Positions 1-21,135 of a stretch of DNA of 24,744 nt are shown in pieces. The notes beneath the pieces are model-generated. The model was not told where the DNA came from. It ran no database searches and worked only from the letters and a program-made list of their open reading frames with translations. The stretch is from Clostridia bacterium. GTDB lineage: Bacteria; Bacillota; Clostridia; Christensenellales; UBA1242. The translations under genes were made by a program, and so were the position numbers. Where the stretch lies: positions 1 through 24,744 of the forward strand of contig JAZUCB010000121.1 in assembly GCA_045638985.1 (NCBI GenBank). The letters run 5' to 3'. The number at the start of each line of letters is the position of its first letter. The stretch's first letter is position 1.

Positions 1-514
1 TAACAGTGTTAGCAAATTGCAATCCATCACCCACACTAACATCATACACATTATCTTCAAAATTATATTTATTTGTTAGTGCTCTCTCATCTTCGGGTTC
101 TAACATGAATTTTTCTTTGCTTAGGCTACTCAAGTGATTTAACACGTATTCGTGAAATGATGTTCTTAGAAATGAACCTTTTGCTCTTTCTTGAACTTCA
201 TAACTTCTAGAATTTTTGGTGGTATAAAAAATCAATCTAGGAGTGTTTATTCCATACTCTATAAGTTGATTAATAATTTGTTTTCTATTTTCAAAAGTAT
301 TTGAAGAAAACAATTGAGATATAATTACCTTATCACTTTTAAATGGGTAAACAGTTTTATATGCGCCTTTACCCATTCTTTCAGTTTTTTTCTTAGTAAT
401 TTTATCTATGTGTAAAGCAAGTTCAAGATTATTAATGCTAGAAGTGCGTGGCACAAGATCGTTTTCTTCTTGCTTTGCTATTAAGTTTTGAATTATTTCA
501 TCAACGATGCTCAT
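1..514 (-). CDS. Kinase-like array paralog 0, partial and apparently truncated or fused; runs off the left edge
   Basis: Not in the ORF track; translated by hand from ATG 514 (RBS AAAGGAG), open to base 1. Reads MSIVDEIIQNLIAKQ...MGKGAYKTVYPF...GINTPRLIFY...YEVQERAKGSFLRT...EPEDERALTNKYNFE, closely matching 1777..2886, then diverges (DNVYDVSVGDGLQFANTV) at about base 55. Confidence 0.8.
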   Translation of the reverse strand, partial: MSIVDEIIQNLIAKQEENDLVPRTSSINNLELALHIDKITKKKTERMGKGAYKTVYPFKSDKVIISQLFSSNTFENRKQIINQLIEYGINTPRLIFYTTKNSRSYEVQERAKGSFLRTSFHEYVLNHLSSLSKEKFMLEPEDERALTNKYNFEDNVYDVSVGDGLQFANTV

Positions 515-566
515 GCATTCTCCTTTGTTTTATAATGAATTAATTTCTTTTTAATTTAAATTTTAA

Positions 567-1718
567 TTATTCTTTTTCTGAAACAACTTCAGTTTGAGGT
601 GTTGGTTGCTCCATTGCGTTTGTTAAATCCATTGCTTTAATAAAACTTTCGCCGTCTATTTCTTTATTGAAATCATAGGTGGCAGGCAAGTCAAATTGGC
701 AACGGATTGATTTTAATAAAGATTTATCATTTGATTTAATTGCAGAGTAAAGCAAATCTAAAGTTTGAGGGTTAGCACCATAAAAATTTGAAAATTTAAA
801 CCTTTCAGCATATTCCTTTGCAAACCTAAGTTTTGGATCGGGTGAAGTTTGCATAACGTTAAGGAATTGCGTGCATAATAGACCTGTGTAAACATATGCT
901 TCAAAATTTTCGTTAGGGTCTGGTTTGAAAAACCCTCCTTCATGTAAACTATCAACACAACAATGCATAAGGTAGGAATAGCTTGACATAATTCTAGCTT
1001 TATTAATGTCATTTATTTGTGAATTAAAAAAGTTATCTAAATCTAATATGTTGTTATTATCAAACTTGTCTAAATCTAAATCAATAAAGGTATATCCAAA
1101 GGCTGGGCTATAGAAGAAGTTGCCTCCGTTAACGTCTAAAGCGTAAGCAGAAGAAAGACAAGTGAAGTGTTTTAAGAACTTTTCAATATGAGGGATTCCT
1201 GTTAGAGTTCTGTTTTTAAGTATTTCAAAATTATATTTTTCGCATAACAAATTTTCTGAATCTTTAGTAAGATTAGGAACAAACATTTCTCCAGTTAAAC
1301 CATATAAATGATAAAGAACTTTCTCATAATCAAAGGTGTTTAAAAATGAACCCTTTGCTCTTTCTTGAACTTCATATGAAAGTTCTTTATTTCCTAATTT
1401 AAAAGCTTGGTCTTGCGTTAAATAAAAAATAAGTTTTGGAGTGTTAATTCCGTATTCGTTTAGTTTGTTAACTATTTCTTTTTTAACATTAAAAGGTAGT
1501 GTTTGGCGATAAGTGCCTTCCTCTAAAATAACTTTATCTTTTTTGTAAGGAAAAACATTTTTATATGCGCCTCCACCCGTTGGGTAAACGTCATAATCTG
1601 CAATTTTTTTAATTTGAGCTTTAATTTCTTTGGCGTTAAACCCACGAGAACATTGTTCTTGATCTATTTCCTTTTGCTTAGCTATTAAGTTTTGAATTAT
1701 TTCGTCAATGCTATTCAT
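567..1718 (-). CDS. Atypical protein-kinase-like protein, paralog 1 (subfamily A; possible pseudokinase)
   Basis: GGGAYKNVF, beta3 KVILEE (no Lys), YEVQERAKGS, DVNGGN, GYTFIDL, C-terminal FIKAMDLT. Confidence 0.75.
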   Translation of the reverse strand: MNSIDEIIQNLIAKQKEIDQEQCSRGFNAKEIKAQIKKIADYDVYPTGGGAYKNVFPYKKDKVILEEGTYRQTLPFNVKKEIVNKLNEYGINTPKLIFYLTQDQAFKLGNKELSYEVQERAKGSFLNTFDYEKVLYHLYGLTGEMFVPNLTKDSENLLCEKYNFEILKNRTLTGIPHIEKFLKHFTCLSSAYALDVNGGNFFYSPAFGYTFIDLDLDKFDNNNILDLDNFFNSQINDINKARIMSSYSYLMHCCVDSLHEGGFFKPDPNENFEAYVYTGLLCTQFLNVMQTSPDPKLRFAKEYAERFKFSNFYGANPQTLDLLYSAIKSNDKSLLKSIRCQFDLPATYDFNKEIDGESFIKAMDLTNAMEQPTPQTEVVSEKE

Positions 1719-1776
1719 GTTTTTTCCTTTGTTTGTTTTTTATGAATTGTTTTTTTTTAATTTTAAATTTAAATTA

Positions 1777-2886
1777 TTATTTTTCTGAAACATCATCAAT
1801 TTGAGGGGCTGGTTGCTCCATTGTATTTGTTAAATCCATTGCTTTAATGAACGATTCGCCGTCTAGTTCTTTATTGAAATCGTAAGATGCAGGCAATCCA
1901 AATTCTTTTCTTATATATTTAAATGTTGTTTCATCGTTTGTTTTTAAACCCGAGTATAATAGATCTAAAGTTTTTGGCGAGGCGCTAGTTATGGAATCAA
2001 AATCAAAATTTTCAGCAAATTCCTTTGCAAATTTTAAATTTGGGTCGGTTGAAGTTTGCATAACATTTAAAAATTGCTTTAGTAAAATTCCAGAATAAAC
2101 GTATTCGCCAAAATGCAAATTGTTGTGAAATAAATTATATCGATAACCATCATCTGAGGCAATGCATTCAAAAATAAAGTCGGCATAACCACTATTAATT
2201 TTGAATTCGCTTGAAGAATTGACTTTTGAATTTAAATAGGCTCTCATGTTTCTTATGTTTTTACTGAAATCTGAAACGTTTAAATCAATAAATGAGTAGC
2301 CAGTTCTTGGATCATAAAAGAAATTTCTAGGAAGAATATCAAGTGCTCCAACGGCTTTTAAGCAAGTGAAATCGCTCAAAAATTTTTCAATGTGTGGAAT
2401 GCCTGTTAAAGTTCTTCTTTTTATCATTTCAAAATTATACTTGTGTTTTAAAGAGTTTTCATCTTCGGGTTCTATTTTTATTTCTTTTTTACTTAATCCA
2501 CTTAAGTGATCTAAAATATAACGATAGTAATTTGTTCTTAAAAATGAACCTTTAGCTCTTTCTTGAACTTCATAATTGTGATTGTCTTTAACTGTGTAAA
2601 ATATTAATCTGGGCGTGTTTATTCCACATTCAATAAGTTGGTTAATAATTTGCTGGCGGTGTTCAAAATCATTTTTATGAAGCAATCCTGCTAAAATAAC
2701 TTTAGCTCCTTTATAAGGGTAAACATTTTTAAAAGCTCCATTGCCCATTTGGTTGGCTTTTTTATTTTCAATTTGTTTTATATGGAAATATAGTTCAGTT
2801 TCGTTTAAACTATCTTTTCTAGCAAGAGCATCGTTGGCATCTTGCTTGGCTATTAAGTTTTGAATTATCTCATCAACGGTGCTCAT
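1777..2886 (-). CDS. Atypical protein-kinase-like protein, paralog 2 (subfamily A; possible pseudokinase)
   Basis: GNGAFKNVY, KVILAG (no Lys), YEVQERAKGS, DILPRN, GYSFIDL, FIKAMDLT; RBS AAAGGAG. Confidence 0.75.
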   Translation of the reverse strand: MSTVDEIIQNLIAKQDANDALARKDSLNETELYFHIKQIENKKANQMGNGAFKNVYPYKGAKVILAGLLHKNDFEHRQQIINQLIECGINTPRLIFYTVKDNHNYEVQERAKGSFLRTNYYRYILDHLSGLSKKEIKIEPEDENSLKHKYNFEMIKRRTLTGIPHIEKFLSDFTCLKAVGALDILPRNFFYDPRTGYSFIDLNVSDFSKNIRNMRAYLNSKVNSSSEFKINSGYADFIFECIASDDGYRYNLFHNNLHFGEYVYSGILLKQFLNVMQTSTDPNLKFAKEFAENFDFDSITSASPKTLDLLYSGLKTNDETTFKYIRKEFGLPASYDFNKELDGESFIKAMDLTNTMEQPAPQIDDVSEK

Positions 2887-2952: not shown

Positions 2953-4266
2953 TTAATTTATTTCAGCAATTTCATCAGTTTTAGCAGTTGGTTGCTCCAT
3001 GGCATATGTTAAATCCATGGCTTTAATGAAAGCATCGCTATCTAGTGTTTTATTCAAGTCGTAATCTTCAGGTAAATAAAATTGATTTTTAACTTCTTGC
3101 AAATAATTTGAGTTGTTTGTTTTAAATGCTGAATATAATTGGTCTAAAAATTCGGGTGGGGCAGAGAAGAAATTTTTTTGATTGTAAAGGTTATTTGCAT
3201 AAAACTTTGCATTATCAAGAAGTGGGCTAGAAGTTGTTTTCATAACGTTTAGAATTTGTTTGGTTAAAACTCCTAAGTAAACATATTCGGTGAAGTATTC
3301 ACGGTTATAAAAACATTCAGAACCCATATATTTTTTGTTTAGTTCCCAACTTCCATATAAATTTGAAAAGAAAAAATCATAATCAGGAAAACTTTTCAAG
3401 TTTTCTTCAAATATACATTTTAATTTTTTTTCATTATAAGATTCAGAGAAACCTCTATAGCCTAAGTCAATAAAAGAATAACCATATTTTTCACTAAAAT
3501 GAATGTTTTCTCCGTGATAATCTATCAAATGATTATTATTAAGAACGGTAAAATCTTCTAAAAATTTTTCAATGTGGGGAATGTGAGTTAAAGCACGGTG
3601 TTTTAGCATGGTTGCGTTATATGTTTTATCAAGATTGCGAGTGAACCCAAGTTGGCTCGGGTGGCAGTTTTTAAGGGTTGATAAAAAGGAAATCATATTT
3701 TCAGGTTTTCCAAAGGCTAATGGAAGCCCTGTTGCTAACTTTTGAATTTCATATGTGATATTAAAGTCACCATTATGCAAAACATCATCTCTAAGAATGT
3801 TTCCAACCAATTCGGGAGTGTTTATATTGTAATTTTTCCTTAAAAAATCAGAAGTTGTTTGTTTGTCTGAAAAACTTATATATTGATTGGGAACTTGTTT
3901 TAATAAGATATATGTTAAAAATCTATAACCCTTTTTATGAACGCCTGACCCCATTTCAGATGAAAGGCCATGTTCAATTTTTTGAATAGATTCAACCAAC
4001 AAAGGATTTTCTGAGGTGAAATAAGAAGGTTCATAATTTTCTAGCATAATTTTTTCATCTGTGTTATTTTGCAATTTTATTAATTCTTCAACTAACTCTA
4101 AATCATAATCATTTAAAGAATATATTAAAGAATCAGATTTTTTTTCAGATTCTTTGGTTAATGGTGGTTGAGTGCAAGAAACAGAATGAGCAGAATTGGT
4201 TGATTCCGTCATTTGAGGTTGATGCTTATTGAAAAACTGTTGAAAAATTCTATTCTTTATTTTCAT
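2953..4266 (-). CDS. Atypical protein-kinase-like protein, paralog 3 (subfamily A, N-terminal extension)
   Basis: GSGVHKKGY, YILLK, YEIQKLATG, DYHGEN, GYSFIDL, FIKAMDLT. The start codon is uncertain because of the roughly 55-aa extension. Confidence 0.8.
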   Translation of the reverse strand: MKIKNRIFQQFFNKHQPQMTESTNSAHSVSCTQPPLTKESEKKSDSLIYSLNDYDLELVEELIKLQNNTDEKIMLENYEPSYFTSENPLLVESIQKIEHGLSSEMGSGVHKKGYRFLTYILLKQVPNQYISFSDKQTTSDFLRKNYNINTPELVGNILRDDVLHNGDFNITYEIQKLATGLPLAFGKPENMISFLSTLKNCHPSQLGFTRNLDKTYNATMLKHRALTHIPHIEKFLEDFTVLNNNHLIDYHGENIHFSEKYGYSFIDLGYRGFSESYNEKKLKCIFEENLKSFPDYDFFFSNLYGSWELNKKYMGSECFYNREYFTEYVYLGVLTKQILNVMKTTSSPLLDNAKFYANNLYNQKNFFSAPPEFLDQLYSAFKTNNSNYLQEVKNQFYLPEDYDLNKTLDSDAFIKAMDLTYAMEQPTAKTDEIAEIN

Positions 4267-4270
4267 TGGT

Positions 4271-5458
4271 TTATATCATTTCTCCTATGCTGGTTGAATT
4301 GTTTTGCATGTCCATTTCGTTAGTTGAATCCATTGCTTTAATAAAACTTTCGCTGTCAAAATCGGTTTGGAAATCATATGATTTTGGAAGCTTAAAATGA
4401 GAGCGAATTTTTTTAAGGCTTTTTTCATCGTTTTGCGTTATTCCAACGTATAGTAAGTTTAAGTTTTTTGAACTTGCTCCAAAATAATCTTTTTCCATGT
4501 TTTTATAATCAAAATTATTAGCAAACTCATTAGCGTCTTTTAAAATCGGATCTGTTGAAGTTTGCATAACGTTTAATAGTTGTTTCATTAGAATTCCAGA
4601 GAACATAAAGTGTTCAAAGTGTTCTTTTCTGCCATCTAAAAAATCATGATAAGAATATCGCTTTGAATGCAAAACAGTTCCATCGGCGCGTTCAAAAAGA
4701 TTGTTAAAGTTTACTTTTCTATTTGCAAGGCAGGTGTTTAAATATTTTTCAAAGTTTGCCAACCCACAGTTGTTTATGCAATCGTTAATATCTAAATCAA
4801 TAAATGAATATCCCATAGATGGGTTATAAAAAACGTTTCCACCATGATAATCCAAAGCATTAATAGAATCTAATATGGCGTAATCTTTTAAAAATTTCTC
4901 AGTGTGGGGAATGCCAGTTAAAACTCTGCGTTTCATCATATCAAGATTATATTTGTGAACTAATTCCCAGAATAATGGGTGAGAATTGCAGTCTAAAACC
5001 TTTTGGTTTTCAAGTGAGTTTAAATAATAAGTAAACTGAGTGGTTGAGTTAAAACCAATTGGTGCTCCAATAGCAGATTGCTGAACTTCATATATTAGGT
5101 CGTCGAATCCGTTTTTGATTATGTCATTTTGGTAGCAAGCGTAAAGCAATGCAGGAGTTGAGACTCCAGCTTCTTTTAAATTTTGAGCAAAAGTTTTTTT
5201 GGCTTTTAGAGAAATAAAACCCGGTTCGCTTCCGTAAGCCAAAATAACATAGTTTAAAAATCTGTAACCAGTTTTTTCCACGCCAAACCCAATTGAAATG
5301 CTTGATTCAGCATTAATATTTTTAATAGCAGAAACAACTTCAGATTCATCAAAAGAAGAATATAGCGATGAAACATCTTTTTGTTCTTTTATTAAGTTTT
5401 GGTCTACTTGATTTTGCAATTCAAATATTCGATTAACAAAGTCGTTTACATTATTCAT
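4271..5458 (-). CDS. Atypical protein-kinase-like protein, paralog 4 (subfamily A)
   Basis: GFGVEKTGY, YVILAY (no Lys), YEVQQSAIG, DYHGGN, GYSFIDL, FIKAMDST; RBS AAAGGAGG. Confidence 0.8.
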   Translation of the reverse strand: MNNVNDFVNRIFELQNQVDQNLIKEQKDVSSLYSSFDESEVVSAIKNINAESSISIGFGVEKTGYRFLNYVILAYGSEPGFISLKAKKTFAQNLKEAGVSTPALLYACYQNDIIKNGFDDLIYEVQQSAIGAPIGFNSTTQFTYYLNSLENQKVLDCNSHPLFWELVHKYNLDMMKRRVLTGIPHTEKFLKDYAILDSINALDYHGGNVFYNPSMGYSFIDLDINDCINNCGLANFEKYLNTCLANRKVNFNNLFERADGTVLHSKRYSYHDFLDGRKEHFEHFMFSGILMKQLLNVMQTSTDPILKDANEFANNFDYKNMEKDYFGASSKNLNLLYVGITQNDEKSLKKIRSHFKLPKSYDFQTDFDSESFIKAMDSTNEMDMQNNSTSIGEMI

Positions 5459-5501: not shown

Positions 5502-6689
5502 TTACATTGTTTCGTTTGTTTGCATTTGTTCATTTGGATTATTCATTTCTCTAGTTATATCCATTGCTTTAATAAAACTTTCGCAGTCGAACATCGTTTG
5601 AAAATTAAAGTTATTAGGAATATCGAATTGATTGCGAATGCAATCAAGGCATCTTGAATCGTTTTCTTTTATTCCTTTATATAAAACGTTTAATGTGCTT
5701 GGGTTTGCGCCAAAGAATTTTTGGTCAATACTGTTTGGGTGTATTCCGCCTAAAAATTCTTTTGCGCTATCTAAAATTGGGCTGGGTGAATTATTAATTG
5801 CATTTATGCATTGTTGCATAACAATTCCTGAGAAAATAAAGTTTTCAAAGTATCGGCTTTTATCTGAATTAAAAGAGTAAGCATTATAAGTTCTGCTAAA
5901 AATAAGTGAACCATCTAAGATGTCAAATAAAATATTGTAATTAGGTGGGTTTGAAATTAGTGCATTATTAACAAAGCCAACTAAATCTTTTTGTTTGTTA
6001 AATTTTAAAAGCGTGTCGTCAAAAACTAAATCTATGAATGTGTAGCCGCTGTTTTCGTTATATAAAATATTCCCACCATGAAAATCCAATGCATTCATAG
6101 ATGCAAGTATGGCATAGTTTTTAACAAAATTTTCAGCATGTTTTGCACCAGTTAATGCACGTTTTTTAAGCATTTCTAAATTATATTTGGCAACTAGTTT
6201 TTTATTGTCAGTTTCAGAATTTCCATATACTTTTTTATTTTCTAATGCGTTTGCATAGTCAATAACTTTATAAGACATGCTAAATCCAATGGGCGAGCCT
6301 TTTGCAAATTGTTGAACTTCATATAAATCGTTCACGTAACCATCATCAAATAGTTTATCTCTTGAAGAATGGAAGATAATTGGAGGAGTTTGAACACCAA
6401 TTGACCTCAACTTTTGAGTGATTTCTTTTTTGGTAGAAAGTGAAACGGTGTAATCAATCTTTTCTTTCAGAATAATATAATTTAAAAATTTATATCCAAC
6501 TTTGTCAACGCCTCTGCCAATTATGGTTGTTTCTCCTTGTTCAATGTTTTTAATTGCTTTAACGAGTTGAGGCATATGAAGAAGAGAATAAAGAAGAGAG
6601 TCAGATGCAGTTTCATCAATTAAACTTTCATCTAACTTTTTTTGAAGTTCAAATATTCTTTTAATAAATTCTTCATTAGTGTTTTTCAT
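5502..6689 (-). CDS. Atypical protein-kinase-like protein, paralog 5 (subfamily A)
   Basis: GRGVDKVGY, YIILK, YEVQQFAKGS, DFHGGN, GYTFIDL, FIKAMDIT; RBS AAAGGAGG. Confidence 0.8.
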   Translation of the reverse strand: MKNTNEEFIKRIFELQKKLDESLIDETASDSLLYSLLHMPQLVKAIKNIEQGETTIIGRGVDKVGYKFLNYIILKEKIDYTVSLSTKKEITQKLRSIGVQTPPIIFHSSRDKLFDDGYVNDLYEVQQFAKGSPIGFSMSYKVIDYANALENKKVYGNSETDNKKLVAKYNLEMLKKRALTGAKHAENFVKNYAILASMNALDFHGGNILYNENSGYTFIDLVFDDTLLKFNKQKDLVGFVNNALISNPPNYNILFDILDGSLIFSRTYNAYSFNSDKSRYFENFIFSGIVMQQCINAINNSPSPILDSAKEFLGGIHPNSIDQKFFGANPSTLNVLYKGIKENDSRCLDCIRNQFDIPNNFNFQTMFDCESFIKAMDITREMNNPNEQMQTNETM

Positions 6690-6728: not shown

Positions 6729-7913
6729 TTATATCATTTCGTTTGTTTCTGATTGTGTATTTGGATTATTCATTTCCCTAGTTAAATCCATTGCTTGAAT
6801 AAAGCTTTCGCAATCAAAGTGGGTTTGAAAATTAAAGGTTGTTGGAATATTGAATTGGTTGCGAATTGCATCTAAAGATTCAGCATCGCTATTTTTTATT
6901 CCGTTATATAATTGATTAAGTGTTTTATAATTTGCTCCAAAATAGGTTTGGTCAATGTTTTCAATGTCTAAATTTTCAACAAATTCCTTTGCACAATCTA
7001 AAACCGGATCTTGCGAATTTGATATTGCGTTTAAATATTGTTGAATTAATATTCCTGAAAAGATGAAGTTTTCAAAATATTTAGTTTTGTCTTTTTTAAA
7101 TCTATTTGGAAAAAACATTTGATCGTGCATAATTGTTCCATTAATTCTATCGAAAAACACATGAAAGTTTGGCGGGTTGTTTTCTAATGCATTGTTGATA
7201 AAAGAGGAAACATGTGGGGTTGTTAAAATATTAACAATTCCACCTAACTCTAAATCAATAAATGAATATCCAGCTTTATCATGAAAGAAAACATTTCCTC
7301 CATGAAAATCTAATACTTTTAAAGAGTTTAGAATTGAATAGTTGTTAATATATTTTTCAATGTGAGGAATTCCTTTTAATGTGCGTTTTTTAAGCATTGC
7401 AAGGTTATATGCCATAACCAAGTCGGTGTTGTTTTCAGTTTCGCTATGAGCGTTGTTAGATTCTAACCCGTTGGCATATTCTAAAACTTTGTAAGATTTA
7501 GAAAAACCAATTGGTGAACCAATTGCTGATTGTTGAACTTCATATAAATCATTAACATGACCATTGTTAAAAACAATATCTTGATTTGTGTGAAAAACGA
7601 TTGGTGGGGTGGAAACACCCTGATCGCTTAAAACTTTAGTTATTGCTTTTTTAACATTTAATGGCAAGTTATATTTATTGGGTTTTTGTTTTAAAATAAC
7701 GTAGTTTAAAAATCTATACCCAACCTTTTCAACGCCTTTTCCAGACTCAAGAACGTTTCCTTTTTCAATATCTTTAATAACATCAATTATTTGAGAAGCG
7801 TGAAATAGCGAATAAATGAGAGAGTCAACTGGAGACTGGGTTATTAAGTTTTGGTCTAATTTGTTTTGCAGTTCAAATATTCTTTGAATAAATTCATCAT
7901 TAGCATTTTCCAT
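6729..7913 (-). CDS. Atypical protein-kinase-like protein, paralog 6 (subfamily A)
   Basis: GKGVEKVGY, YVILK, YEVQQSAIGS, DFHGGN, GYSFIDL, FIQAMDLT; RBS AAGGAGG. Confidence 0.8.
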   Translation of the reverse strand: MENANDEFIQRIFELQNKLDQNLITQSPVDSLIYSLFHASQIIDVIKDIEKGNVLESGKGVEKVGYRFLNYVILKQKPNKYNLPLNVKKAITKVLSDQGVSTPPIVFHTNQDIVFNNGHVNDLYEVQQSAIGSPIGFSKSYKVLEYANGLESNNAHSETENNTDLVMAYNLAMLKKRTLKGIPHIEKYINNYSILNSLKVLDFHGGNVFFHDKAGYSFIDLELGGIVNILTTPHVSSFINNALENNPPNFHVFFDRINGTIMHDQMFFPNRFKKDKTKYFENFIFSGILIQQYLNAISNSQDPVLDCAKEFVENLDIENIDQTYFGANYKTLNQLYNGIKNSDAESLDAIRNQFNIPTTFNFQTHFDCESFIQAMDLTREMNNPNTQSETNEMI

Positions 7914-7981: not shown

Positions 7982-8170
7982 CTAAACCAATCCAAATTCT
8001 AATTCGCCATTGTTTTCTTTAACTTCCATATGCTCTCTTTCTGAGTGATTAATTGGGGCAGGGTTAGGGTTTGCAAAATCAAACTCGTGAGTTGCTTGCA
8101 TGGTTTCTAAAAAGTTAGGAATATCAATGCAAGCAAAATCAAAATCTTCTGGTAGGTTATATTCTTCCTT
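7982..8170 (-). repeat. Near-identical 3' gene ends shared by paralogs 7, 8 and 9 (other copies at about 9365..9545 and 10671..10860)
   Basis: Visual alignment; for example GGGTTAGGGTTTGCAAAATCAAACTCGTG and TTTCTAAAAAGTTAGGAA recur in all three copies. Confidence 0.85.
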
Positions 8171-9322
8171 TATTTCATCAAGGGAAGTAGAGTCGTTTTC
8201 AATTAATGCGTTTTCAAGTTTCAATATGTTTTTTGGTGAAATTAACAATAAATCGTTTAAAACTGGGCTACTTCTATTATTTAATTGAGATTCTATTTTA
8301 AGAGCACATTCTTTAGCGTGTGGGAAATATGGATTATAGCATTCATTTTCAGGAATGTTAGTTTTCATTGCTTCTAGTAGTTGATGAGTGATTATTCCGT
8401 TATAAACATGCTGAGCAAAGTTCTCAGGAGTAATTGGCTTGGGAATGTAGTTTTCTGGAGTAACGCCCAACATAGAAATTATAAAATTACCAAAATCATA
8501 ATTATGAGTTTCAAATTTAGCATTAGCATATTTTTCTAATTTTGATTTGATTTTTGACATAATATTAGATTGTTCGTAGCTCTCATTTGGTAATGCATCA
8601 AACAAAAAAATATCGGGATCTAAATCAAAAAACGTGTAACCAGTATGTGAATTATAAAAAACATTTTCTGTGTGTAGGTCAGCAAAACTTAAACGATTCA
8701 ATATGCAAAAATCAAACATAAAATTTTTAATAAATGGCATACCCGTTTGTGCTCGGTGCTTTGCCATAGCCAGATTATATTGGTCCTTTATATCACACTC
8801 ACTTAAAGATTTTAAATAATCTTCGTTTATATTTTGATTAAAAGAAGATATGTGTTTTATTAGCTGATTGGTTCTTAAAACACTAACAAAAGAGCCTTTT
8901 GCTTCTTCTTGAATTTGGTAAGAGTAATAACCAGAGTGAAAGTAATCGTCGCTTGATGATTTTTCAGTTGTGAATAAAAGAGGCATTGCAATATTAACCC
9001 CAAGTTTTTTTAAAGCAAGAGCATTAAAAAATGCTCGGCTTGGCTTTAAAACTTTTACATAGCTTTTTAATAAAATTTTATTTGAGTCAAATAAATATGC
9101 TTTTTTATATTTCCCTTCACCACAAACAGAAAATTTGCTTGATTCAGGATTGTTTTCATCATTAATTAACTCTTCAATATAATGTTTATATTCTTCGTTT
9201 TGAGCATCTATTTCTTGGTTAGAAGGAATAGATGCTAAGCCAAGCATGGAAAAATCAGATGGTTCGAATCCACTTTCGTTGTTTTGCGTTTTAAGTTTTA
9301 AATATTCAATTATGTTGTTCAT
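7982..9322 (-). CDS. Atypical protein-kinase-like protein, paralog 7 (subfamily B)
   Basis: CGEGKYKKAY, KILLK, YQIQEEAKGS, DLHTEN, GYTFFDL, FLETMQATHEFDF, ends GELEFGLV; RBS AAGGTGG. Confidence 0.8.
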   Translation of the reverse strand: MNNIIEYLKLKTQNNESGFEPSDFSMLGLASIPSNQEIDAQNEEYKHYIEELINDENNPESSKFSVCGEGKYKKAYLFDSNKILLKSYVKVLKPSRAFFNALALKKLGVNIAMPLLFTTEKSSSDDYFHSGYYSYQIQEEAKGSFVSVLRTNQLIKHISSFNQNINEDYLKSLSECDIKDQYNLAMAKHRAQTGMPFIKNFMFDFCILNRLSFADLHTENVFYNSHTGYTFFDLDPDIFLFDALPNESYEQSNIMSKIKSKLEKYANAKFETHNYDFGNFIISMLGVTPENYIPKPITPENFAQHVYNGIITHQLLEAMKTNIPENECYNPYFPHAKECALKIESQLNNRSSPVLNDLLLISPKNILKLENALIENDSTSLDEIKEEYNLPEDFDFACIDIPNFLETMQATHEFDFANPNPAPINHSEREHMEVKENNGELEFGLV

Positions 9323-11980: not shown

Positions 11981-13303
11981 TTAAACCATTTCATATTCTA
12001 AATTTCCATCAACGTCGCGAGCTTTAATATACTCTCTAGATGGTGTTTCAGTTGGGGTTGGGTTTGGGTTAGAAAAATCAAACTCGCGAGTTGCTTTCAT
12101 TGTTTCTAAGAAGAATGGAATATCGATGCAAGAGAAATCAAAATCTTCTGGCAAGTTATATTCTTCTTTAATTTCGTCAAGGGAAGTAGAGTTGTTTTCA
12201 AGTAAAGCATTTTCAAGCTTTAATAAATTATTAGGTGATATTAAAATTGCATTGTTTAAAACGGTATTGCTCTTATCGTTTAATTGCGATTCAAGTTTAA
12301 TAGCGCAATCTTTAGCGTGTGGGAAATTTGGGTTATAGCAATCATTTTCTGGAGTGTTGGTTTTCATTGATTCTAGAAGTTGATGTGTTATTATTCCGTT
12401 ATAAACATATTGAGCAAAGCCTCTTTTAAGCGTTGGTTTAGCAATGTGAGAAGGAGTGGAAAGGCCCAAAGCTGAAATCATATAATTCATGAAATCTCGT
12501 TCAATTGTTTCAGAAGAGTAATTTGAATAGTTTTCTAAATTTTCTTTAATCTTTGAAATGGCTTCTGCTTGTTTGAATGTTTCATCATCAAATAAATTGT
12601 TGGTTTGGTCTATATCGAAAAACGTGTAGCCTTTTTGAGAACTATAAAAAACGTTTTCTGTGTGTAAATCTTTAAAACCTAAAATCTTTAATGTGCTGAA
12701 ATCAAACATATAATTTTTAATAAAAGGCATTCCTGTTTTTGCTCTGTGTTTTGTCATGGCAAGATTAAATTGATCTCTAACTTTGCTTTTGTCTAAATCT
12801 TTAAAATATTCTATGTTAATATCATGATTAGCTGAAGTTATGTGTTCAATTAATGAGTCTGCTCTAAGAGATTTAACAAAAGAGCCTTTTGCTTCTTCTT
12901 GAATTTCAAATGAATAATATGGGTGGCTTTTATTAGGGTAAACGCTTGCTTCTGTTGTGAACAAAAGAGGCATTGCAATATTAACTCCAAACTTTTTTAG
13001 CGCTAATGCAATGAAAAAAGCTTGGCCTGGTTTTGCAACTTTTGTGTCGCTTTTTAATAAAATTTTATTTGAATTAATTAAAAATCCTTTTTTATGAACG
13101 CCTTCACCACAAATACATGGTTTTTTGCCAGGATTTTCGCTTTCCATAAGTTCTTTAATGTGGTGAGTGTATTCTTCATTTTGAGAAGCAATTTCATCAT
13201 CTGAAGGAGCGTGGTCTAAACCAAGCAAAGAAAAATCTGATGGTTCGAAGCCACTTTCTTTGTTTTGGGTTTTAAGTTTTAAATATTCTAATATGTTATT
13301 CAT
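11981..13303 (-). CDS. Atypical protein-kinase-like protein, paralog 10 (subfamily B)
   Basis: CGEGVHKKGF, KILLK, FEIQEEAKGS, DLHTEN, GYTFFDI, ends LEYEMV; N-terminus nearly identical to that of 7982..9322. Confidence 0.8.
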   Translation of the reverse strand: MNNILEYLKLKTQNKESGFEPSDFSLLGLDHAPSDDEIASQNEEYTHHIKELMESENPGKKPCICGEGVHKKGFLINSNKILLKSDTKVAKPGQAFFIALALKKFGVNIAMPLLFTTEASVYPNKSHPYYSFEIQEEAKGSFVKSLRADSLIEHITSANHDINIEYFKDLDKSKVRDQFNLAMTKHRAKTGMPFIKNYMFDFSTLKILGFKDLHTENVFYSSQKGYTFFDIDQTNNLFDDETFKQAEAISKIKENLENYSNYSSETIERDFMNYMISALGLSTPSHIAKPTLKRGFAQYVYNGIITHQLLESMKTNTPENDCYNPNFPHAKDCAIKLESQLNDKSNTVLNNAILISPNNLLKLENALLENNSTSLDEIKEEYNLPEDFDFSCIDIPFFLETMKATREFDFSNPNPTPTETPSREYIKARDVDGNLEYEMV

Positions 13304-13360: not shown

Positions 13361-14704
13361 TTAAACCAACCCAAACTCTAATTCGCCATTAACTTCTTTT
13401 AATTCAACGTGTTCTCTGGTTGGGGTTTCAATAGGGGTAGGATTTGGGTTTGCAAAAACAAACTCGTGAGTTGCTTTCATTGTTTCTAAAAAGTATGGAA
13501 CATCAATGCAGTTAAAATCAAAATCATCTGGCAGGTTAAGTTTTTTTGCAATTAAATGCAAAGCAACTTGGTTATTGGTAAGCAAAGCGTTTTCTAAACT
13601 CATCAATGTGTTTGAGCCCATTGCAAAAGTTCCATCATCGCAAATGTCTGATTTGTTAAGTTCTTTTTCTTTCTTTTCTGCAAACTTTTGAACCAATGGT
13701 TTTCTTAAATTATGAGAGCCCAAATCAGTTGCGTGTTTCATTGTTTCAATTGCTTGATGGGCAATAATTCCGTTATAAACATATAAAGGGAAGTTTTCAG
13801 CAGTTAAAACATCATCGGGCTTATATTTATTTGAAACAAGTGTGAATATCATTTGGGTTGCTGTTTTCTCTGGAAAATTAATGCTAGCCCCGTCGCGATA
13901 AATTCCTAATCCGCAAGCAAAGAAATCTCTATAATAATATTCTTCCATTGGTTTAGATGTTTGGCTTATTGCTTTGTTAATCTCATCAACAACGTTTCCA
14001 CTTGGATTGATGTTGTTATCGGTATATTCCAAATCAAAGAAAGTGTAACCCTTTTTAGAACTAAAGAATATGTTTTCATAAAAAACATCTCCATGGTTTA
14101 ATGCTTTTAATGTTCTGAAATCAGAGAAGAATTTGTTCATATGAGGCAAGCCAGTTTTTGCACGGTGCTTTGCCATTTGAGTGTTGTATTGAATTAGTAA
14201 TTCTTTTGCTGTTAATTCTTGCACAGTGCTTGATTTAAATGTTTCAATGTTAAATGCTGCTAAATGCTCTAAAAGAGAGTTTGATCTAAAAGCACTAACA
14301 AACGAACCTTTTGCTTCTTCTTGAATTTGATATGAGTAATCGCCGCAATCAATATTTTTAAGTTCGTTTTCATGAATTTGAAATAAAGGCATTGCAATAT
14401 TTATTCCATATTTTTTAAGAGCAAGTGCTCTATAAAAATTTTCAGATGCCGGGCGAACAACTTTATCTGATTTTAGTAAGATTTTATTGTTGATTCGGTA
14501 TGCACTTTTATCTCTTCCTTCTCCGCATGGTGCTTGGGTGGAGTTTTCAACTTGGTTAACCATTTGAACGTATTCTTCATTTTGCATTGTGATATTGCAA
14601 TTGGTTGGTTGAAACTCATCGCTAAGCATAGAAAAATCAGCAGTTGAAAAACCACCTCTATTTTCTTTTATTGCATTCATTAAAACTTCAAAAGTATTAT
14701 CCAT
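13361..14704 (-). CDS. Atypical protein-kinase-like protein, paralog 11 (subfamily B; catalytic-loop His replaced)
   Basis: CGEGRDKSAY, KILLK, YQIQEEAKGS, HGDVFYEN, GYTFFDL, ends GELEFGLV; RBS GAGGTGG. Confidence 0.8.
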   Translation of the reverse strand: MDNTFEVLMNAIKENRGGFSTADFSMLSDEFQPTNCNITMQNEEYVQMVNQVENSTQAPCGEGRDKSAYRINNKILLKSDKVVRPASENFYRALALKKYGINIAMPLFQIHENELKNIDCGDYSYQIQEEAKGSFVSAFRSNSLLEHLAAFNIETFKSSTVQELTAKELLIQYNTQMAKHRAKTGLPHMNKFFSDFRTLKALNHGDVFYENIFFSSKKGYTFFDLEYTDNNINPSGNVVDEINKAISQTSKPMEEYYYRDFFACGLGIYRDGASINFPEKTATQMIFTLVSNKYKPDDVLTAENFPLYVYNGIIAHQAIETMKHATDLGSHNLRKPLVQKFAEKKEKELNKSDICDDGTFAMGSNTLMSLENALLTNNQVALHLIAKKLNLPDDFDFNCIDVPYFLETMKATHEFVFANPNPTPIETPTREHVELKEVNGELEFGLV

Positions 14705-15029: not shown

Positions 15030-15038
15030 AACAAAAAT

Positions 15039-16111: not shown

Positions 16112-17350
16112 TTAAACCAATTCATAATCATAATCTCCGTTTTGGGAAATGTTAAGACTTGCGTGGTCTGATGTGTTTTGAGAAGTGTTAGCTTTAGGGG
16201 TTGGGTCTTTATAATCAAATGTGTGAGATAAATGCATTGTTTCTAAGAAGTTTGGAACATCAATGCATGAAAAATCAAAGTCTTTGCCAAGTCCATGTTG
16301 CATGGCGATGCTTTTTAAAACTCCATCATCATTTGAAATTAGTGCTTTTTCAAGAGTTGCAAGTGTTTTAGGATTCATTGCAAAAACCTTTCCAACAAGC
16401 AAGTTTTTGTTTTCATAAAAATCAGCAATAGTTTTTCTGGCAAAAGCCCTTGCGTTTGGAAAAAGTGGATTATAATTTGGGCTTTCTGGAACGTTTGAGT
16501 TCAACATTTTTAAATATTGAAAAAGCAAAACGCCGTTATAAACATATTGAGAAAAATTGTTTTCGTTAGGGGTTTCTGTAAAATCACTTTTGTTTAGACC
16601 AAAAGATGTTGTTAAAAAGGTTGAATAATCATGATCTTCAAAAAAATTGGAGCGTCTTGCTAAACGTTGTTTAACAACTTCTGCAAAGTTTTCGTTTTCA
16701 TTAAAATCGAAATCAAAATGTAAATCAAAAAATTTATAACCATCTTTAGAGCTATAATACACATTTTCTGAGTGTTTGTCTTGAGTGCCTAATTCTGTTA
16801 AAATAACGTAGTCCATAAAGAAATTTTTTAAATGAGGCAATCCTGTTTTTGCGCGATGTTTTGCCATTTGAAGGTTATATGCGTTATTTAATTTTTCTTT
16901 ATCAATCTTTTTAAAATCTAAATTAGGACTGAATGCTGAAAGATATTTAACAAGACTATCTTCATTAATAATTCTAACGTGTGAGCCTTTTGCTTCTTCT
17001 TGAACTTGATATTGAACAGGGTAATCTTCTGATTGAAAGAACCCTTTAAATCTACGAATGTTTTTTTCAGAAGTAAAGAAAACTGGGCAAGCAATATTAA
17101 CCCCCATTTTTTTTAATGCGTTTGCTTTTTTAATAATAGATGGTGGGTCAACTTTATAACTTTTAGTTTTTAGAAGTATATAACCTGGTTTTAAATGATA
17201 TGCTTTTTTATAAAGACCTTCTCCGCATAGTGTTGGGTGTGATTTTTCAAGTTTGCGAATTTCGTTAATAAAATCTATGCTAGAAATATCTTCAGCATTT
17301 TCATGAGTATTTATTAAATTGTTTTTAATTTGCTCTAATATTTTACTCAT
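16112..17350 (-). CDS. Atypical protein-kinase-like protein, paralog 12 (subfamily B)
   Basis: CGEGLYKKAY, YILLK, YQVQEEAKGS, DKHSEN, GYKFFDL, ends DYELV. Start moved from 17371 to ATG 17350, which has GGAG upstream. Confidence 0.8.
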   Translation of the reverse strand: MSKILEQIKNNLINTHENAEDISSIDFINEIRKLEKSHPTLCGEGLYKKAYHLKPGYILLKTKSYKVDPPSIIKKANALKKMGVNIACPVFFTSEKNIRRFKGFFQSEDYPVQYQVQEEAKGSHVRIINEDSLVKYLSAFSPNLDFKKIDKEKLNNAYNLQMAKHRAKTGLPHLKNFFMDYVILTELGTQDKHSENVYYSSKDGYKFFDLHFDFDFNENENFAEVVKQRLARRSNFFEDHDYSTFLTTSFGLNKSDFTETPNENNFSQYVYNGVLLFQYLKMLNSNVPESPNYNPLFPNARAFARKTIADFYENKNLLVGKVFAMNPKTLATLEKALISNDDGVLKSIAMQHGLGKDFDFSCIDVPNFLETMHLSHTFDYKDPTPKANTSQNTSDHASLNISQNGDYDYELV

Positions 17351-17405
17351 TTTTTTCTCCAATAGTTTCAAATTTGAACCTTAAGCCACATATTATTTAT
17401 TATAT

Positions 17406-17434
17406 ATTATACAATATTATTATGTTTTTGTCAA
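17406..17434 (-). promoter_or_regulatory. Consensus promoter of paralog 12
   Basis: TTGACA (17434-17429), 17 nt, TATAAT (17411-17406). Confidence 0.85.
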
Positions 17435-17451
17435 TTTGAAGGGGTTTTGGT

Positions 17452-18591
17452 TTAAACAAACTCAAACTCAGTTCTGTGAATATTTCTATCAACTTTAATA
17501 TGGTCGATGCTAGAGGTTGAGGTTTGAGTGTTTGTTGGATTTGAATAATCAAACTCGTGAGTTAATTTCATTGTTTCTAAAAAGTTCGGAATATCGATGC
17601 AAGAAAAATCAAAGTTTTTGCCTAACTTATATTCATCACGAACTAAATTAAGAGCATCTTCGTTGTTGTTTAATAAGCCTTGCTCTAGTGTAAATAACAT
17701 CATTGGTGGCATTGAAAAATAATTTTCTCTTAAATGTTTGCTATTTTCTAATGTGTATGCAAAATTTCGCGTGTTAGGAAAGTGTGGGTTGTAGCAAGGG
17801 TTTTCGGGAATATTTGCTCTAACTGTTTCGCATAATTGATGTGCAATAACTCCATTATAAACAAATTGGGTGAAGTTTTCGGAAGAGTGTTTCGAAACAT
17901 CAATAGGGCAAATTAACCCATAGCAATCTTGGAGGAATCTATTTAAAGTTGTTTGAGAATCAATAGTTTCGCCACCATCGCTTACGTTTATTATTTGAGA
18001 AGCAATATCTTTATCTGGATTAATTTGCATAAAAGGTGATAAATCAAAAAATGTGTAGCCATTGGTTGATGAATAATAAACATTTTCAGAGTGCATGTCA
18101 CCATTATGAAAAGCGCATAAAGTTAGATAATCGTTTAAGAAATTATTTAAGTGAGGTAGGTGAGTTTTTGCACGATGTTTTGTCATTTCAACATTATAAT
18201 TTTTTGCCAATTTTTTTTGGTTAATAAGTTGTTTTCTTAAAGATGGGTTAAATGCAATAATGTGGGAATATAAACTCTCTTCTCGTGAAACATTAACAAA
18301 AGAACCTTTTGCCTCTTCTTGAACCTCATAAAAGATTAATCTATTGCCTTCTTTTTCAACCTTATCTTGAGATGTGAAAAATTTTGGCAGTGCAATATTC
18401 ACGCCATAATTTTTTAAAGCAATATATCTTTTTATATTTTCAGCAGGTTCAACTGGTGCTTTTCTAGATTTTAGAATAACGTGACCATCTAGGGTGTATC
18501 CAGTTTTTGAGTTTCCTTCTCCACATTTTATTGCTTTTTTTTCTGCTTTTTTTATTAAGTTGATATAAAATTCTTCAAACGCTTCGCTCAT
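17452..18591 (-). CDS. Atypical protein-kinase-like protein, paralog 13 (subfamily B)
   Basis: CGEGNSKTGY, HVILK, YEVQEEAKGS, NGDMHSEN, GYTFFDL, ends EFEFV; RBS AAGGTGG. Confidence 0.8.
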   Translation of the reverse strand: MSEAFEEFYINLIKKAEKKAIKCGEGNSKTGYTLDGHVILKSRKAPVEPAENIKRYIALKNYGVNIALPKFFTSQDKVEKEGNRLIFYEVQEEAKGSFVNVSREESLYSHIIAFNPSLRKQLINQKKLAKNYNVEMTKHRAKTHLPHLNNFLNDYLTLCAFHNGDMHSENVYYSSTNGYTFFDLSPFMQINPDKDIASQIINVSDGGETIDSQTTLNRFLQDCYGLICPIDVSKHSSENFTQFVYNGVIAHQLCETVRANIPENPCYNPHFPNTRNFAYTLENSKHLRENYFSMPPMMLFTLEQGLLNNNEDALNLVRDEYKLGKNFDFSCIDIPNFLETMKLTHEFDYSNPTNTQTSTSSIDHIKVDRNIHRTEFEFV

Positions 18592-18643
18592 TTTTTTCCA
18601 CCTTTATTTTTGAGTTAGCAATTACCCGCATAGTATTTATTAT

Positions 18644-18672
18644 ATTATATAATATAATATTAAATTTGTCAA
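18644..18672 (-). promoter_or_regulatory. Consensus promoter of paralog 13
   Basis: TTGACA (18672-18667), 17 nt, TATAAT (18649-18644). Confidence 0.85.
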
Positions 18673-18886
18673 ATTTGCCAAATTTTAAGATTGCTTCTAA
18701 ACCATTTCAAAATCGAAGTTGTTCTCATCGATAGTTGAAACTTTAATATGATCAACAGTTGATGAAGTTGGTGCTTGATTGTTTGTTGGGTTTGCAAAAT
18801 CAAACTCATGAGTTAATCTCATTGTTTCTAAGAAGTTTGGAATATCAATGCAAGAAAAATCAAACTTCTCGCCTAAATCGTATTTT
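18665..18886 (-). repeat. Direct repeat (second copy at 19925..20146, offset 1260 nt) covering the 3' end of one paralog and the -35 box of the next
   Basis: TTTGTCAAATTTGCCAAATTTTAAGATT(G/A)CTTCTAAACCATTTCAAAATCGAAG... occurs at both positions with scattered mismatches. Confidence 0.85.
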
Positions 18887-19857
18887 ACTCTAACTCTATC
18901 AAGAGTTTTTTTATCGTTATTTATTAAACCTTCCTCTAGCAAAAGTAAATATTTAGGGTGCATAGAAAAAGTGTCGCAACAGATCATTGATTCGAAGTCT
19001 TCTTCGAAATCTTGAGCAATACCCCTAATATATGGAAATAGAGGATTGTAGAAAGCATTTTTGGGAGCATGTGCTTTTAGAGTTTCAATAAATTGATAAG
19101 TTAAAATACTATTGTAGGCTAGTTGAGGGAAGTTATGAGAGTTGACGTGTGGTGATAATTCAAAATTGTCAATTCCGAAGCAATAATCAAGAAAATTTCT
19201 AAGTGGGTTTAGTGAATAAATATGGGAATGTCTGTTAGTTAATTCTGCTTGACTTTCCAAAATACGTTTAATATTATCTGAATCAAAATCCATATCTGAA
19301 TACAAATCAAAATATGTGTAGCCATTGGTGGAAGAATAATAAACGTTTTCATGGTGAATGTCACGAAAACCTAATAAACTCAAAGTTAAATAGTCTTCAA
19401 TAGATTTAAATAGGTGAGGTAGCCCTGTTTTCGCACGGTGCTTTGCCATCTCTAAGTTATAAATTTCTTCAAGTTTTTTTAAGTTTATTTGCTCATTTTT
19501 TAGTTGAGGATTAAAAGCAATAATATGAGAATATAAGCTACGCTCTCTAGCAACTCTAGGGAATGAGCCTTTTGCTTCTTCTTGAATTTGGTAAAATATT
19601 AGTTTATTGCCACCGTCTATGGCTTTCTGTTTTGATGTGAAAAATTTTGGCAATGCAATGTTCACGCCATAATTTTTTAAAGCTGTTGCTTGTGTAATAC
19701 TTTTAGCAGGTTTATAATATTCGTCAAATGATTTTAGTATTATATGACCATCTAAAGAATAGGCGTTTTTATAATCGCCACGTCCACAAGATTCAAGTTC
19801 TTGATCTTCTGCTTTTTTTATTAAGTTTAAATAAAATTCATCATATGCTTCGCTCAT
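18697..19857 (-). CDS. Atypical protein-kinase-like protein, paralog 14 (subfamily B)
   Basis: CGRGDYKNAY, HIILK, YQIQEEAKGS, DIHHEN, GYTYFDL, ends DFEMV. Start moved to ATG 19857 (MSEA..., as in paralogs 13 and 15); the track's GTG at 19866 lies inside the AAGGTGG RBS. Confidence 0.8.
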   Translation of the reverse strand: MSEAYDEFYLNLIKKAEDQELESCGRGDYKNAYSLDGHIILKSFDEYYKPAKSITQATALKNYGVNIALPKFFTSKQKAIDGGNKLIFYQIQEEAKGSFPRVARERSLYSHIIAFNPQLKNEQINLKKLEEIYNLEMAKHRAKTGLPHLFKSIEDYLTLSLLGFRDIHHENVYYSSTNGYTYFDLYSDMDFDSDNIKRILESQAELTNRHSHIYSLNPLRNFLDYCFGIDNFELSPHVNSHNFPQLAYNSILTYQFIETLKAHAPKNAFYNPLFPYIRGIAQDFEEDFESMICCDTFSMHPKYLLLLEEGLINNDKKTLDRVRVKYDLGEKFDFSCIDIPNFLETMRLTHEFDFANPTNNQAPTSSTVDHIKVSTIDENNFDFEMV

Positions 19858-19903
19858 TTTTTCCACCTTTATTTTTAAGTTAGCAATAGTTCACATAGTA
19901 TTT

Positions 19904-19932
19904 ATTATATTTTATAATGTTGAATTTGTCAA
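19904..19932 (-). promoter_or_regulatory. Consensus promoter of paralog 14
   Basis: TTGACA (19932-19927), 17 nt, TATAAT (19909-19904). Confidence 0.85.
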
Positions 19933-19956
19933 ATTTGCCAAATTTTAAGATTACTT

Positions 19957-21135
19957 CTAAACCATTTCAAAATCGAAGGTATTCTCATCGATAGCCGAAA
20001 CTTTAATATGATCAACATTCGATGAAGTTGGTGCTTGATTATTTGTTGGATTTCCAAAATCAAACTCGTGAGTTATTTTCATAGTTTGCAAAAAATTAGG
20101 GATATCAATGCAAGAAAAATCAAAGTCTTTGCCTAGTTCGTATTTTGTTCTTATTTGGTTAAGAAGAACTGAATTGTTATTTAATAAACCTTCCTCTAGC
20201 ATTAAAATATCGTTAGGATGCATAGCGAAAATGTTGTTTTCAAAGAATCCATCATGAGTTTTAATATAATGACTTATGTTTTTACCATTTTTCAATATTG
20301 GGTTGATATCATTATCACACGACTTATTTATTGTTTCTAAAAGTTGGTGTGTTAAAATTCCGTTATAAACAAATAGACTGAAGTGGTTATTAACTAGGTC
20401 TTTTGATGTAAGGGGAAAGCAATTCATACCCAACCCAAAACAATCTTCCATAAATAGTTCAACTTTTGTTGCGTCAAATGATAGATTAAGCAAACTGCTT
20501 GCACTTTTATGTTGTTGTGATTCTAATTGATCTTGAAATTGAGAGGCTATATCAAATGCTGGGTCAACATTTATTAGTGCAGTAATATCGAAAAAAGTAT
20601 AACCATTGGTTGAGGAATAGTTAACATTTTCTGAGTGCATATCTCCATTTCCAAAAGTGCGTAATAAAAAGTAATCGCTAACAAACTTTTTTAAATGGGG
20701 TAACCCAGTTTTTGCGCGATGCTTTGCCATTTCAAGGTTATATTGTTGTTTAAGTTTTACTTTATCAGGTTCTTCTTCGTTTAAATTTGGGTTGAATGCA
20801 ACTAGGTGATAATATAAATTTTTAGTGTTTGAAACGTTAACAAAAGAGCCTTTTGCTTCTTCTTGAACCTCATAAAAAGTTTCAGGATCGCCGAATTTTT
20901 CAACTTTATCTTGCGAAGTGAAAAACTTAGGCAACGCAATGTTCACGCCATAATTTTTTAAAGCAGTTAGTTTTTTAATATATTCAGCAGGGTGGAAGAG
21001 GCTTTTGGTTGATTTTAAAATAACATGGTTGTTGCAATAAAAACCAGTTTTATAAACTCCAACCCCACACTTAGTTGAATCTTGTTCAGCTTTTTTTATT
21101 AAGTTTAAATAAAATTCCTTAAACTCTTCGCTCAT
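19957..21135 (-). CDS. Atypical protein-kinase-like protein, paralog 15 (subfamily B)
   Basis: CGVGVYKTGF, HVILK, YEVQEEAKGS, NGDMHSEN, GYTFFDI, ends DFEMV; RBS AAGGTGG. Confidence 0.8.
   Translation of the reverse strand: MSEEFKEFYLNLIKKAEQDSTKCGVGVYKTGFYCNNHVILKSTKSLFHPAEYIKKLTALKNYGVNIALPKFFTSQDKVEKFGDPETFYEVQEEAKGSFVNVSNTKNLYYHLVAFNPNLNEEEPDKVKLKQQYNLEMAKHRAKTGLPHLKKFVSDYFLLRTFGNGDMHSENVNYSSTNGYTFFDITALINVDPAFDIASQFQDQLESQQHKSASSLLNLSFDATKVELFMEDCFGLGMNCFPLTSKDLVNNHFSLFVYNGILTHQLLETINKSCDNDINPILKNGKNISHYIKTHDGFFENNIFAMHPNDILMLEEGLLNNNSVLLNQIRTKYELGKDFDFSCIDIPNFLQTMKITHEFDFGNPTNNQAPTSSNVDHIKVSAIDENTFDFEMV

Follow-up and report, generated by a model that had tools for sequence, protein, structure and literature searches.

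The window analysed here is a stretch of 24,744 nucleotides from a Clostridia bacterium that makes up the entire contig C121 (JAZUCB010000121.1) of a 1.15-Mb metagenome-assembled genome (75% complete). It has about 30% G+C, and its minus strand carries, between positions 2 and 21135, 16 head-to-tail open reading frames of one protein family, interrupted once by a plus-strand GDSL-lipase gene (15272-15985). The array most likely encodes a previously unclassified family of protein-kinase-like (PKL) phosphotransferases in which a Lys in the glycine loop occupies the position of the Lys of the WNK kinases, and the Lys of strand β3, the textbook Lys of kinases, is variable. The 16 paralogs are as follows, each with its glycine loop, the residue at the β3 Lys position, the catalytic-loop motif and the motif that contains the metal-binding Asp; unless another numbering is named, residues in the text carry the numbers of their counterparts in PKA.

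Paralog 0, 2..514, minus strand: N-lobe only, loop GKGAYK (Lys codon 356-358), β3 Ser (VIISQ, codon 317-319); runs past the low end of the window, with family similarity lost after KYNFE
Paralog 1, 567..1718, minus strand: GGGAYK, β3 Glu (VILEE), DVNGGN, FIDL
Paralog 2, 1777..2886, minus strand: GNGAFK, β3 Ala (VILAG), DILPRN, FIDL
Paralog 3, 2953..4266, minus strand: GSGVHK, β3 Lys (ILLKQ), DYHGEN, FIDL
Paralog 4, 4271..5458, minus strand: GFGVEK (K62), β3 Ala (VILAY, A74), DYHGGN, FIDL
Paralog 5, 5502..6689, minus strand: GRGVDK, β3 Lys (IILKE), DFHGGN, FIDL
Paralog 6, 6729..7913, minus strand: the reference for residue numbering, with G58, G60, K63, K75, Q127, D202, H204, N207 and D220
Paralog 7, 7982..9322, minus strand: GEGKYK, β3 Lys (ILLKS), DLHTEN, FFDL
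Paralog 8, 9365..10627, minus strand: GQGVFK, β3 Lys, DMHAQN, FFDL, Glu at the start of αC
Paralog 9, 10671..11936, minus strand: GHGLHK, β3 Lys, DMHAQN, FFDL, Glu at the start of αC
Paralog 10, 11981..13303, minus strand: GEGVHK, β3 Lys, DLHTEN, FFDI
Paralog 11, 13361..14704, minus strand: GEGRDK, β3 Lys, DVFYEN (no His), FFDL, Glu at the start of αC
Paralog 12, 16112..17371, minus strand: GEGLYK, β3 Lys (ILLKT), DKHSEN, FFDL
Paralog 13, 17452..18591, minus strand: GEGNSK, β3 Lys, DMHSEN, FFDL, Glu at the start of αC
Paralog 14, 18697..19866, minus strand: GRGDYK, β3 Lys, DIHHEN, YFDL
Paralog 15, 19957..21135, minus strand: GVGVYK, β3 Lys, DMHSEN, FFDI, Glu at the start of αC

A sequence-only reading of this DNA had proposed that the glycine-loop Lys is invariant and the β3 Lys dispensable, and its observations on the motifs are borne out. 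The Lys of G-x-G-x-x-K is kept in all 16 copies (codons from 356-358 to 21049-21051), and the strings given as examples are found in copy 0 (GKGAYKTVY), copy 2 (GNGAFKNVY) and copy 12 (GEGLYKKAY). The β3 Lys is replaced in copies 0, 1, 2 and 4, by Ser, Glu, Ala and Ala, respectively, the strand reading [VI][IL]LK in the remaining 12 of the 16; paralog 4 has intact DYHGGN and FIDL motifs; and a candidate αC Glu, at the start of the predicted helix, is confined to copies 8, 9, 11, 13 and 15. The span that had been assigned to the site, 340-21070, contains the loop Lys of copy 0 and leaves the β3 codon of that copy (317-319) just outside. The paralogs share 22-54% identity, and 11 alignment columns are invariant in 16 of 16, including (paralog 6 numbering) G58, G60 and K63 in the loop and N207 and D220 in the catalytic core. 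With identities this low and just 11 such columns, the invariance of the loop Lys reflects neither chance nor recent gene conversion. Paralogs 7-15 (subfamily B, 7982-21135) have a conserved C-terminal tail (...NGELEFGLV, ...FDFEMV) that is absent in paralogs 1-6. The hinge motif, Y-E-V-Q-E-x-A-x-G, includes a gatekeeper Gln (Q127 of paralog 6, codon 7533-7535) that is invariant in the 16 copies and present in 84% of the wider family; this Gln might take over the contacts of the missing αC Glu.

The residue register to PKA was obtained with hhalign by comparing an alignment of 87 family members with 7 Hanks-type kinases and with 14 APH-family proteins, both sets being from genomes of the same order. 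The comparison with the Hanks set gave a probability of 68% (E = 5e-5 over 217 columns) and that with the APH set a probability of 87% (E = 3.9e-6 over 229 columns). In the Hanks alignment, G58, G60, K63, G65, I73 and K75 of paralog 6 are paired with PKA positions 50, 52, 55, 57, 70 and 72, D202, N207 and D220 are paired with D166, N171 and D184, and Q127 falls on the gatekeeper; the spacings between the catalytic Asp and the Asn (D+5) and between the Asn and the metal-binding Asp (N+13) are identical to those in PKA. By this register the invariant loop Lys is placed at position 55, the site of Lys233 of WNK1, and the variable Lys at position 72. Lys233 of WNK1 is required for catalysis (PMC1821047, PMC4718504), and in ChoK the corresponding residue, N55, is directed into the ATP pocket, adjacent to residue 72 (PMC1821047).

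No member could be assigned to a Pfam (87 members searched), NCBIfam, PADLOC or PHROG family, phmmer matched no PDB chain, and a profile search of the PDB gave a single weak match, CaMK-like, with an E value of 0.0075. AlphaFold2 models were obtained for paralog 6 (alignment of the 16 paralogs; pLDDT 86, pTM 0.88) and for paralog 4 (48-sequence alignment; pLDDT 90, pTM 0.90), and have the same secondary-structure plan. When the models were compared with some 48,000 representative solved chains in an all-against-all structural search, kinase-fold proteins made up 47 of the top 50 matches for paralog 6 and 48 of the top 50 for paralog 4 (Z 7-8.4), including APH(2''), macrolide phosphotransferase (MPH), YihE, Bud32, Rio1/2, MtnK, Rad53, IRAK4, haspin and WaaP. 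The others were NIS synthetases, together with one TraF domain for paralog 6, and the best single match of paralog 6 was the NIS synthetase AcsD (Z 9.1). Foldseek searches of the PDB, the AFDB clusters and Swiss-Prot were in weak agreement (E about 1e-4 to 1e-3), and a shape search of the ESM Atlas returned Kdo/WaaP, APH and RIO clusters with TM scores of 0.6-0.7, normalised by match. The models and fold searches place these proteins in the PKL fold, an assignment in which the consistency of the matches and the motifs are given more weight than the Z scores, which are middling. The predicted structures are bilobal, with a β-sheet N-lobe that includes αC and a helical C-lobe, and equivalents of G52, D166, N171 and D184 are present, but the Lys72-Glu91 salt-bridge pair is not; it should be noted that single PKL families can be devoid of these two residues (Kannan et al. 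2007, PMC1821047). In both models FIDL is followed immediately by a helix, which leaves no room for an activation segment or an APE motif.

Among 1.8 billion representative proteins, a profile search identified 97 relatives at E ≤ 1e-3, all without a name. The consensus of the family reads G-x-x-K-x-C-Y ... V-[VIL]-L-K ... Y-E-V-Q-E-x-A-x-G ... D-x-H-x-x-N ... G-F-x-F-I-D-L. In an alignment based on a hidden Markov model (hmmalign), the conserved residues of the fold are nearly invariant (G52 in 66/67, D166 in 85/91, N171 in 90/91 and D184 in 91/91 members); Lys55 is present in 54/66 and Lys72 in 42/66, with Arg in 4 more, and the two rank 12th and 28th in conservation among 207 columns. In a MAFFT alignment of the 87 members the counts are 59 for Lys55 and 53 for Lys72, the latter after four rows with "ALKE", one column out of register, were corrected by eye. 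Family-wide, therefore, Lys55 is more conserved (about 68-82%) than Lys72 (61-64%). No αC column is more than 31% acidic, so that the canonical Lys72-Glu91 pair is not a family feature.

A maximum-likelihood tree of 86 kinase cores, from which the two trait columns had been removed, has at least 12 changes of state at position 72 and at least 8 at position 55; it was made by a quick search, is unrooted and has many weakly supported deep branches, so that gains of either Lys are indistinguishable from losses. Two well supported clades are without Lys72. In one, P0041/43/45/55, the β3 residue is A/S/V/T, and in the other, which consists of paralog 4 and four orthologs from other samples, it is A/A/A/C/S; Lys55 and the D-H-N-D residues are kept in both. 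Paralog 4 and its ortholog in another metagenome (locus L100) are 74% identical, with a ratio of nonsynonymous to synonymous substitution rates (dN/dS) of 0.25, and paralog 1 and its ortholog (locus L105) are 79% identical with a dN/dS of 0.20, the values for the paralogs that have Lys72 being 0.15-0.48. The dN/dS values of 0.20-0.25 show that genes lacking Lys72 are under purifying selection, with their catalytic residues intact.

The interpretation that we favour, with a probability of about 0.5, is that Lys55 supplies the charge for the phosphates, that Lys72 is redundant and that copies without Lys72, for example paralog 4, are probably active. Situated in the glycine loop on its β2 side, Lys55 would extend into the ATP pocket next to position 72 and give positive charge to the ATP phosphates. 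With this charge in place and no αC Glu as its partner, the β3 Lys would be weakly constrained and could be lost repeatedly, as exemplified by copies 0, 1, 2 and 4 and by a further copy from a different contig, while the copies that lack it would stay working enzymes. The data show the fold, the residue register, the pattern of conservation and the purifying selection on lineages without Lys72; from these we infer that Lys55 touches ATP, that it can replace Lys72 and that the proteins are active kinases. A broader form of this proposal is more tentative: the array may represent a new family outside the eukaryotic protein kinases (ePKs) in which the β2 Lys anchors ATP and the β3 Lys is a dispensable extra, the first Lys-based WNK-type site of a non-ePK. 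Equally tentative is the corollary that the site has been caught in a polymorphic state, with both, either or neither Lys, among at least 18 diverging copies in a genome of about 1.2-1.5 Mb.

Several observations weigh against these proposals. The proteins are neither WNKs nor ePKs, the hhalign probabilities of 68% and 87% are modest, and it is by homology that the Lys55 side chain is expected to reach the phosphates. The spacing between Lys55 and the β3 position takes two values, 12 residues (8 copies) and 13 residues (8 copies); because of this variation the hairpin turn is ambiguous, and the direction in which the side chain faces is unreadable from secondary structure. Position 55 is Ser or another residue in about 18-32% of members; two sister genes of another species differ here, one having Ser and the second Lys, and in the short same-genus homologues L004 and L005 the loop is shortened and lacks the Lys, whereas "ALKEY" is invariably found in β3. 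Most members keep both lysines, so that Lys72, where it occurs, may still be the principal catalytic residue. Members without both lysines number 4 of 66, with 4.4 expected, or 10 of 87, with 10.9 expected (roughly 6-11%; 3 of the 10 have Arg at position 55). The losses of Lys55 and Lys72 thus fit independence, and an either/or compensation is unsupported; this test is weak, however, since the rows are related and informative pairs were too few in a paired test made on the tree. Finally, paralogs 1 and 2 are without the catalytic-loop His (DVNGGN and DILPRN) as well as Lys72.

This last observation bears on the strongest alternative, which we regard as doubtful: a two-lysine site in which Lys72 is principal and Lys55 assists by contacting the γ-phosphate or steadying the loop, copies 0, 1, 2 and 4 being weak or dead pseudokinases that are kept as binders, scaffolds or regulators. 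The canonical [VI]-x-L-K strand in 12 of 16 copies and in about 60% of the family is consistent with such a site, as are the truncation of paralog 0 and the loss of the His in paralogs 1 and 2; mutation of Lys72 inactivates most canonical kinases (PMC4718504), and purifying selection shows that a gene is functional, not that its product is catalytic. Pseudokinases, however, usually decay at several motifs, whereas the representatives that have Lys55 and lack Lys72 keep D166 in 13 of 14 and both N171 and D184 in 14 of 14, and the β3 residue drifts (A/C/S in one clade, A/S/V/T in the other) while the catalytic residues remain fixed. The family-wide absence of the αC Glu partner and the greater conservation of Lys55 also argue against a principal role for Lys72.

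It is unlikely, and somewhat less favoured than the two-lysine site, that neither Lys is essential, ATP being held by Mg2+ (through N171 and D184), the loop amides and the His or Lys at D+2, and Lys55 being conserved for the binding of an anionic or phosphorylated substrate, for regulation or for loop structure. The independence of the losses would be explained, and the members without both lysines (from 4/66 to 10/87) keep N171 and D184; one clade of this type, P0075/76/91, has D-x-K-x-x-N as its catalytic loop. PKL families without Lys72 are known, such as HSK2 with T72 and CAK with R72 (PMC1821047), and in the APH-type proteins of relatives position 55 is commonly polar (N, S or D). Against this, a Lys at a phosphate-loop site whose side chain is known to enter the ATP pocket next to residue 72 is most simply read as a phosphate ligand (PMC1821047), Lys55 is kept without exception by the 16 paralogs, with their identities of 22-54%, and by the orthologs, and the members lacking both lysines may themselves be inactive. 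That the proteins are not phosphotransferases, the fold serving some other chemistry (AMPylation as in SelO, glutamylation as in SidJ) or none, is highly improbable: it would accord with the lack of a sequence family, the middling fold matches (Z 7-9, Foldseek E about 1e-4 to 1e-3), the AcsD match of paralog 6 and the known kinase folds with different chemistry (SidJ, PMC6858067), but the equivalents of D166, N171 and D184 are at exact PKA spacing, G52 is nearly invariant, and the profile-profile alignments to Hanks and APH kinases match all catalytic motifs.

RpoB, at identities of up to 94%, groups the source organism with uncultured Clostridia and Christensenellales-like bins recovered from the guts of animals and humans, and parts of the array are present in sequencing runs from animal gut and faeces metagenomes. 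At least two further copies occur in the same genome outside the window, on contig C228, together with a fragment on contig C172. C228 (1-2000) carries one C-terminal fragment and one full-length copy, the latter with the loop GNGYFK and "ILLET" in β3, and so likewise without the β3 Lys; the fragment on C172 is short. The family accounts for about 2% of this very small gut-bacterial genome. It is patchily distributed, being present in 6 of the 24 genomes of the genus that were searched and in 1 of 200 genomes from the remainder of the order, and it was absent from the phage and plasmid collections searched; a search of genome contigs with the alignment of the 16 paralogs gave no confirmed relatives. 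At locus L100 (223-3953), from another sample, the closest genes to paralogs 8 (91% identity), 5 (94%) and 4 (74%) directly adjoin one another, the corresponding part of the window being 4271-11936; the copy number and order of the array thus vary between strains. No Hanks-type kinase (PF00069, above the Pfam cut-off) was found in the 24 genus genomes searched (G001-G024) or in the genome of the window (G000), whereas 12 of 16 other families of the order (G025-G040) have one. The unclassified family may be the sole protein-kinase-like signalling enzyme here, APH-type proteins aside, and its expansion in a genome without a Hanks kinase would fit a diversified kinase arsenal for varied targets.

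Further genes of the window, beyond the high end of the array, are as follows.

21583..22233, plus strand: 216-residue P-loop protein upstream of the array; sole match phrog_4182 (phage, function unassigned), E = 3e-11
22368..22943, plus strand: stand-alone HD-domain phosphohydrolase of about 200 residues
23490..24716, plus strand: 408-residue open reading frame, unmatched in Pfam, NCBIfam, PADLOC and PHROGs

Stand-alone HD-domain genes of this size are also present at loci L101 (10146-10754) and L102 (2226-2885), and the HD-domain proteins near family members at two unrelated loci are 34% identical over 82 residues (E = 1e-9). This proximity might represent a kinase/phosphohydrolase pairing, or coincidence. 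At L101 (3604-8972), P0041, a distant member without the β3 Lys, lies directly after a large serine recombinase, two helix-turn-helix regulators and a Rep-like gene; this locus is close to dnaN, rpmH and rnpA and resembles an integrated mobile element. Beyond the nearby HD-domain gene and the recombinase, the gene neighbourhoods of the distant members gave no functional clue.

The β3 Lys is routinely used to call kinases "dead," and the WNKs are the textbook exception. If the favoured reading is correct, the array family, whose position-55 Lys occurs alongside the β3 Lys, persists where the latter is lost and at times substitutes for it, would constitute a natural variant series (both, either or neither) in which the migration of the phosphate-anchoring charge within the kinase fold could be probed, and it would be a caution against labelling bacterial kinase-like proteins without Lys72 as pseudokinases. 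It should also be recognized that the family is unannotated in every library searched. In the literature, as represented in an incomplete library, no description was found of the family or of a Lys at position 55 in a bacterial or other non-ePK family, and a 2025 review of bacterial pseudokinases gives WNK and ULK4 as the only precedents for compensatory ATP binding (PMC12599244).

The nearest profile match of the array family is with the APH/ChoK/MtnK group (PF01636), with which it shares a bilobal structure, the absence of an activation segment and a polar side chain at position 55. However, none of the 87 members matches PF01636 at E ≤ 0.01, the catalytic loop is D-x-[HK]-x-x-N as opposed to H-x-D-x-x-x-x-N in APH/ChoK, and the C-terminal helical domain is unrelated to that of APH/ChoK. 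In the Hanks kinases (PF00069), the registers of the glycine loop, β3, hinge, catalytic loop and DFG Asp align with those of the array family, whose basic or polar residue at D+2 recalls D-L-K-P-E-N, but the family has no PF00069 match, no activation loop or APE motif and no αC Glu. At D+2 the catalytic loop resembles that of Ser/Thr kinases; elsewhere, the C-lobe is similar to that of small ELK-type kinases. In the CAK-chloro group of choline/aminoglycoside-type kinases, which have R55, M72 and F91, the charge has been proposed to have moved from position 72 to position 55 (Kannan et al. 2007, PMC1821047). That group, with which the family is compared here by description, is likewise a non-ePK, bacterial-type kinase-like group with a charge at position 55 and loss of E91, but the residue is Arg rather than Lys, the swap is fixed rather than polymorphic, and its members belong to APH/ChoK.

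The closest parallel in the active site is with the WNKs, in which, as in all 16 window proteins, a Lys takes the place of the third glycine of GxGxxG (PKA position 55); 4 window copies and about 40% of the family also resemble them in lacking the β3 Lys with D166, N171 and D184 retained. However, WNK3 ranks only 40th among the fold matches (Z 7.0), WNK1 has K233 on β2 and C250 on β3 and all WNKs are without Lys72, whereas the array family mostly keeps it (in 12 of 16 copies and 53 of 87 members). As true ePKs, the WNKs possess HRD, an activation segment, APE and a conserved αC Glu (E268); the array family has no Pkinase match among its 87 members, no activation segment and no conserved αC Glu. 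The WNK-like active site put forward in the sequence-only reading is therefore upheld in part, by the kinase-like fold, the position of the loop Lys and its conservation relative to Lys72, and qualified by the non-ePK character of the proteins, the frequent retention of the β3 Lys and the independent losses of the two lysines; the string GRGSFKTVY that it gave for WNK was not confirmed, a literature search for it having found nothing. The pattern fits a WNK-style active site without proving one. A Lys at this position is known in ePKs, in the WNKs; here it occurs in a new, unclassified kinase-like family outside the ePKs. Of the two origins that had been suggested, a shared arrangement is very unlikely and convergence is the only tenable form, and the likeness of the array family to the WNKs is probably convergent.

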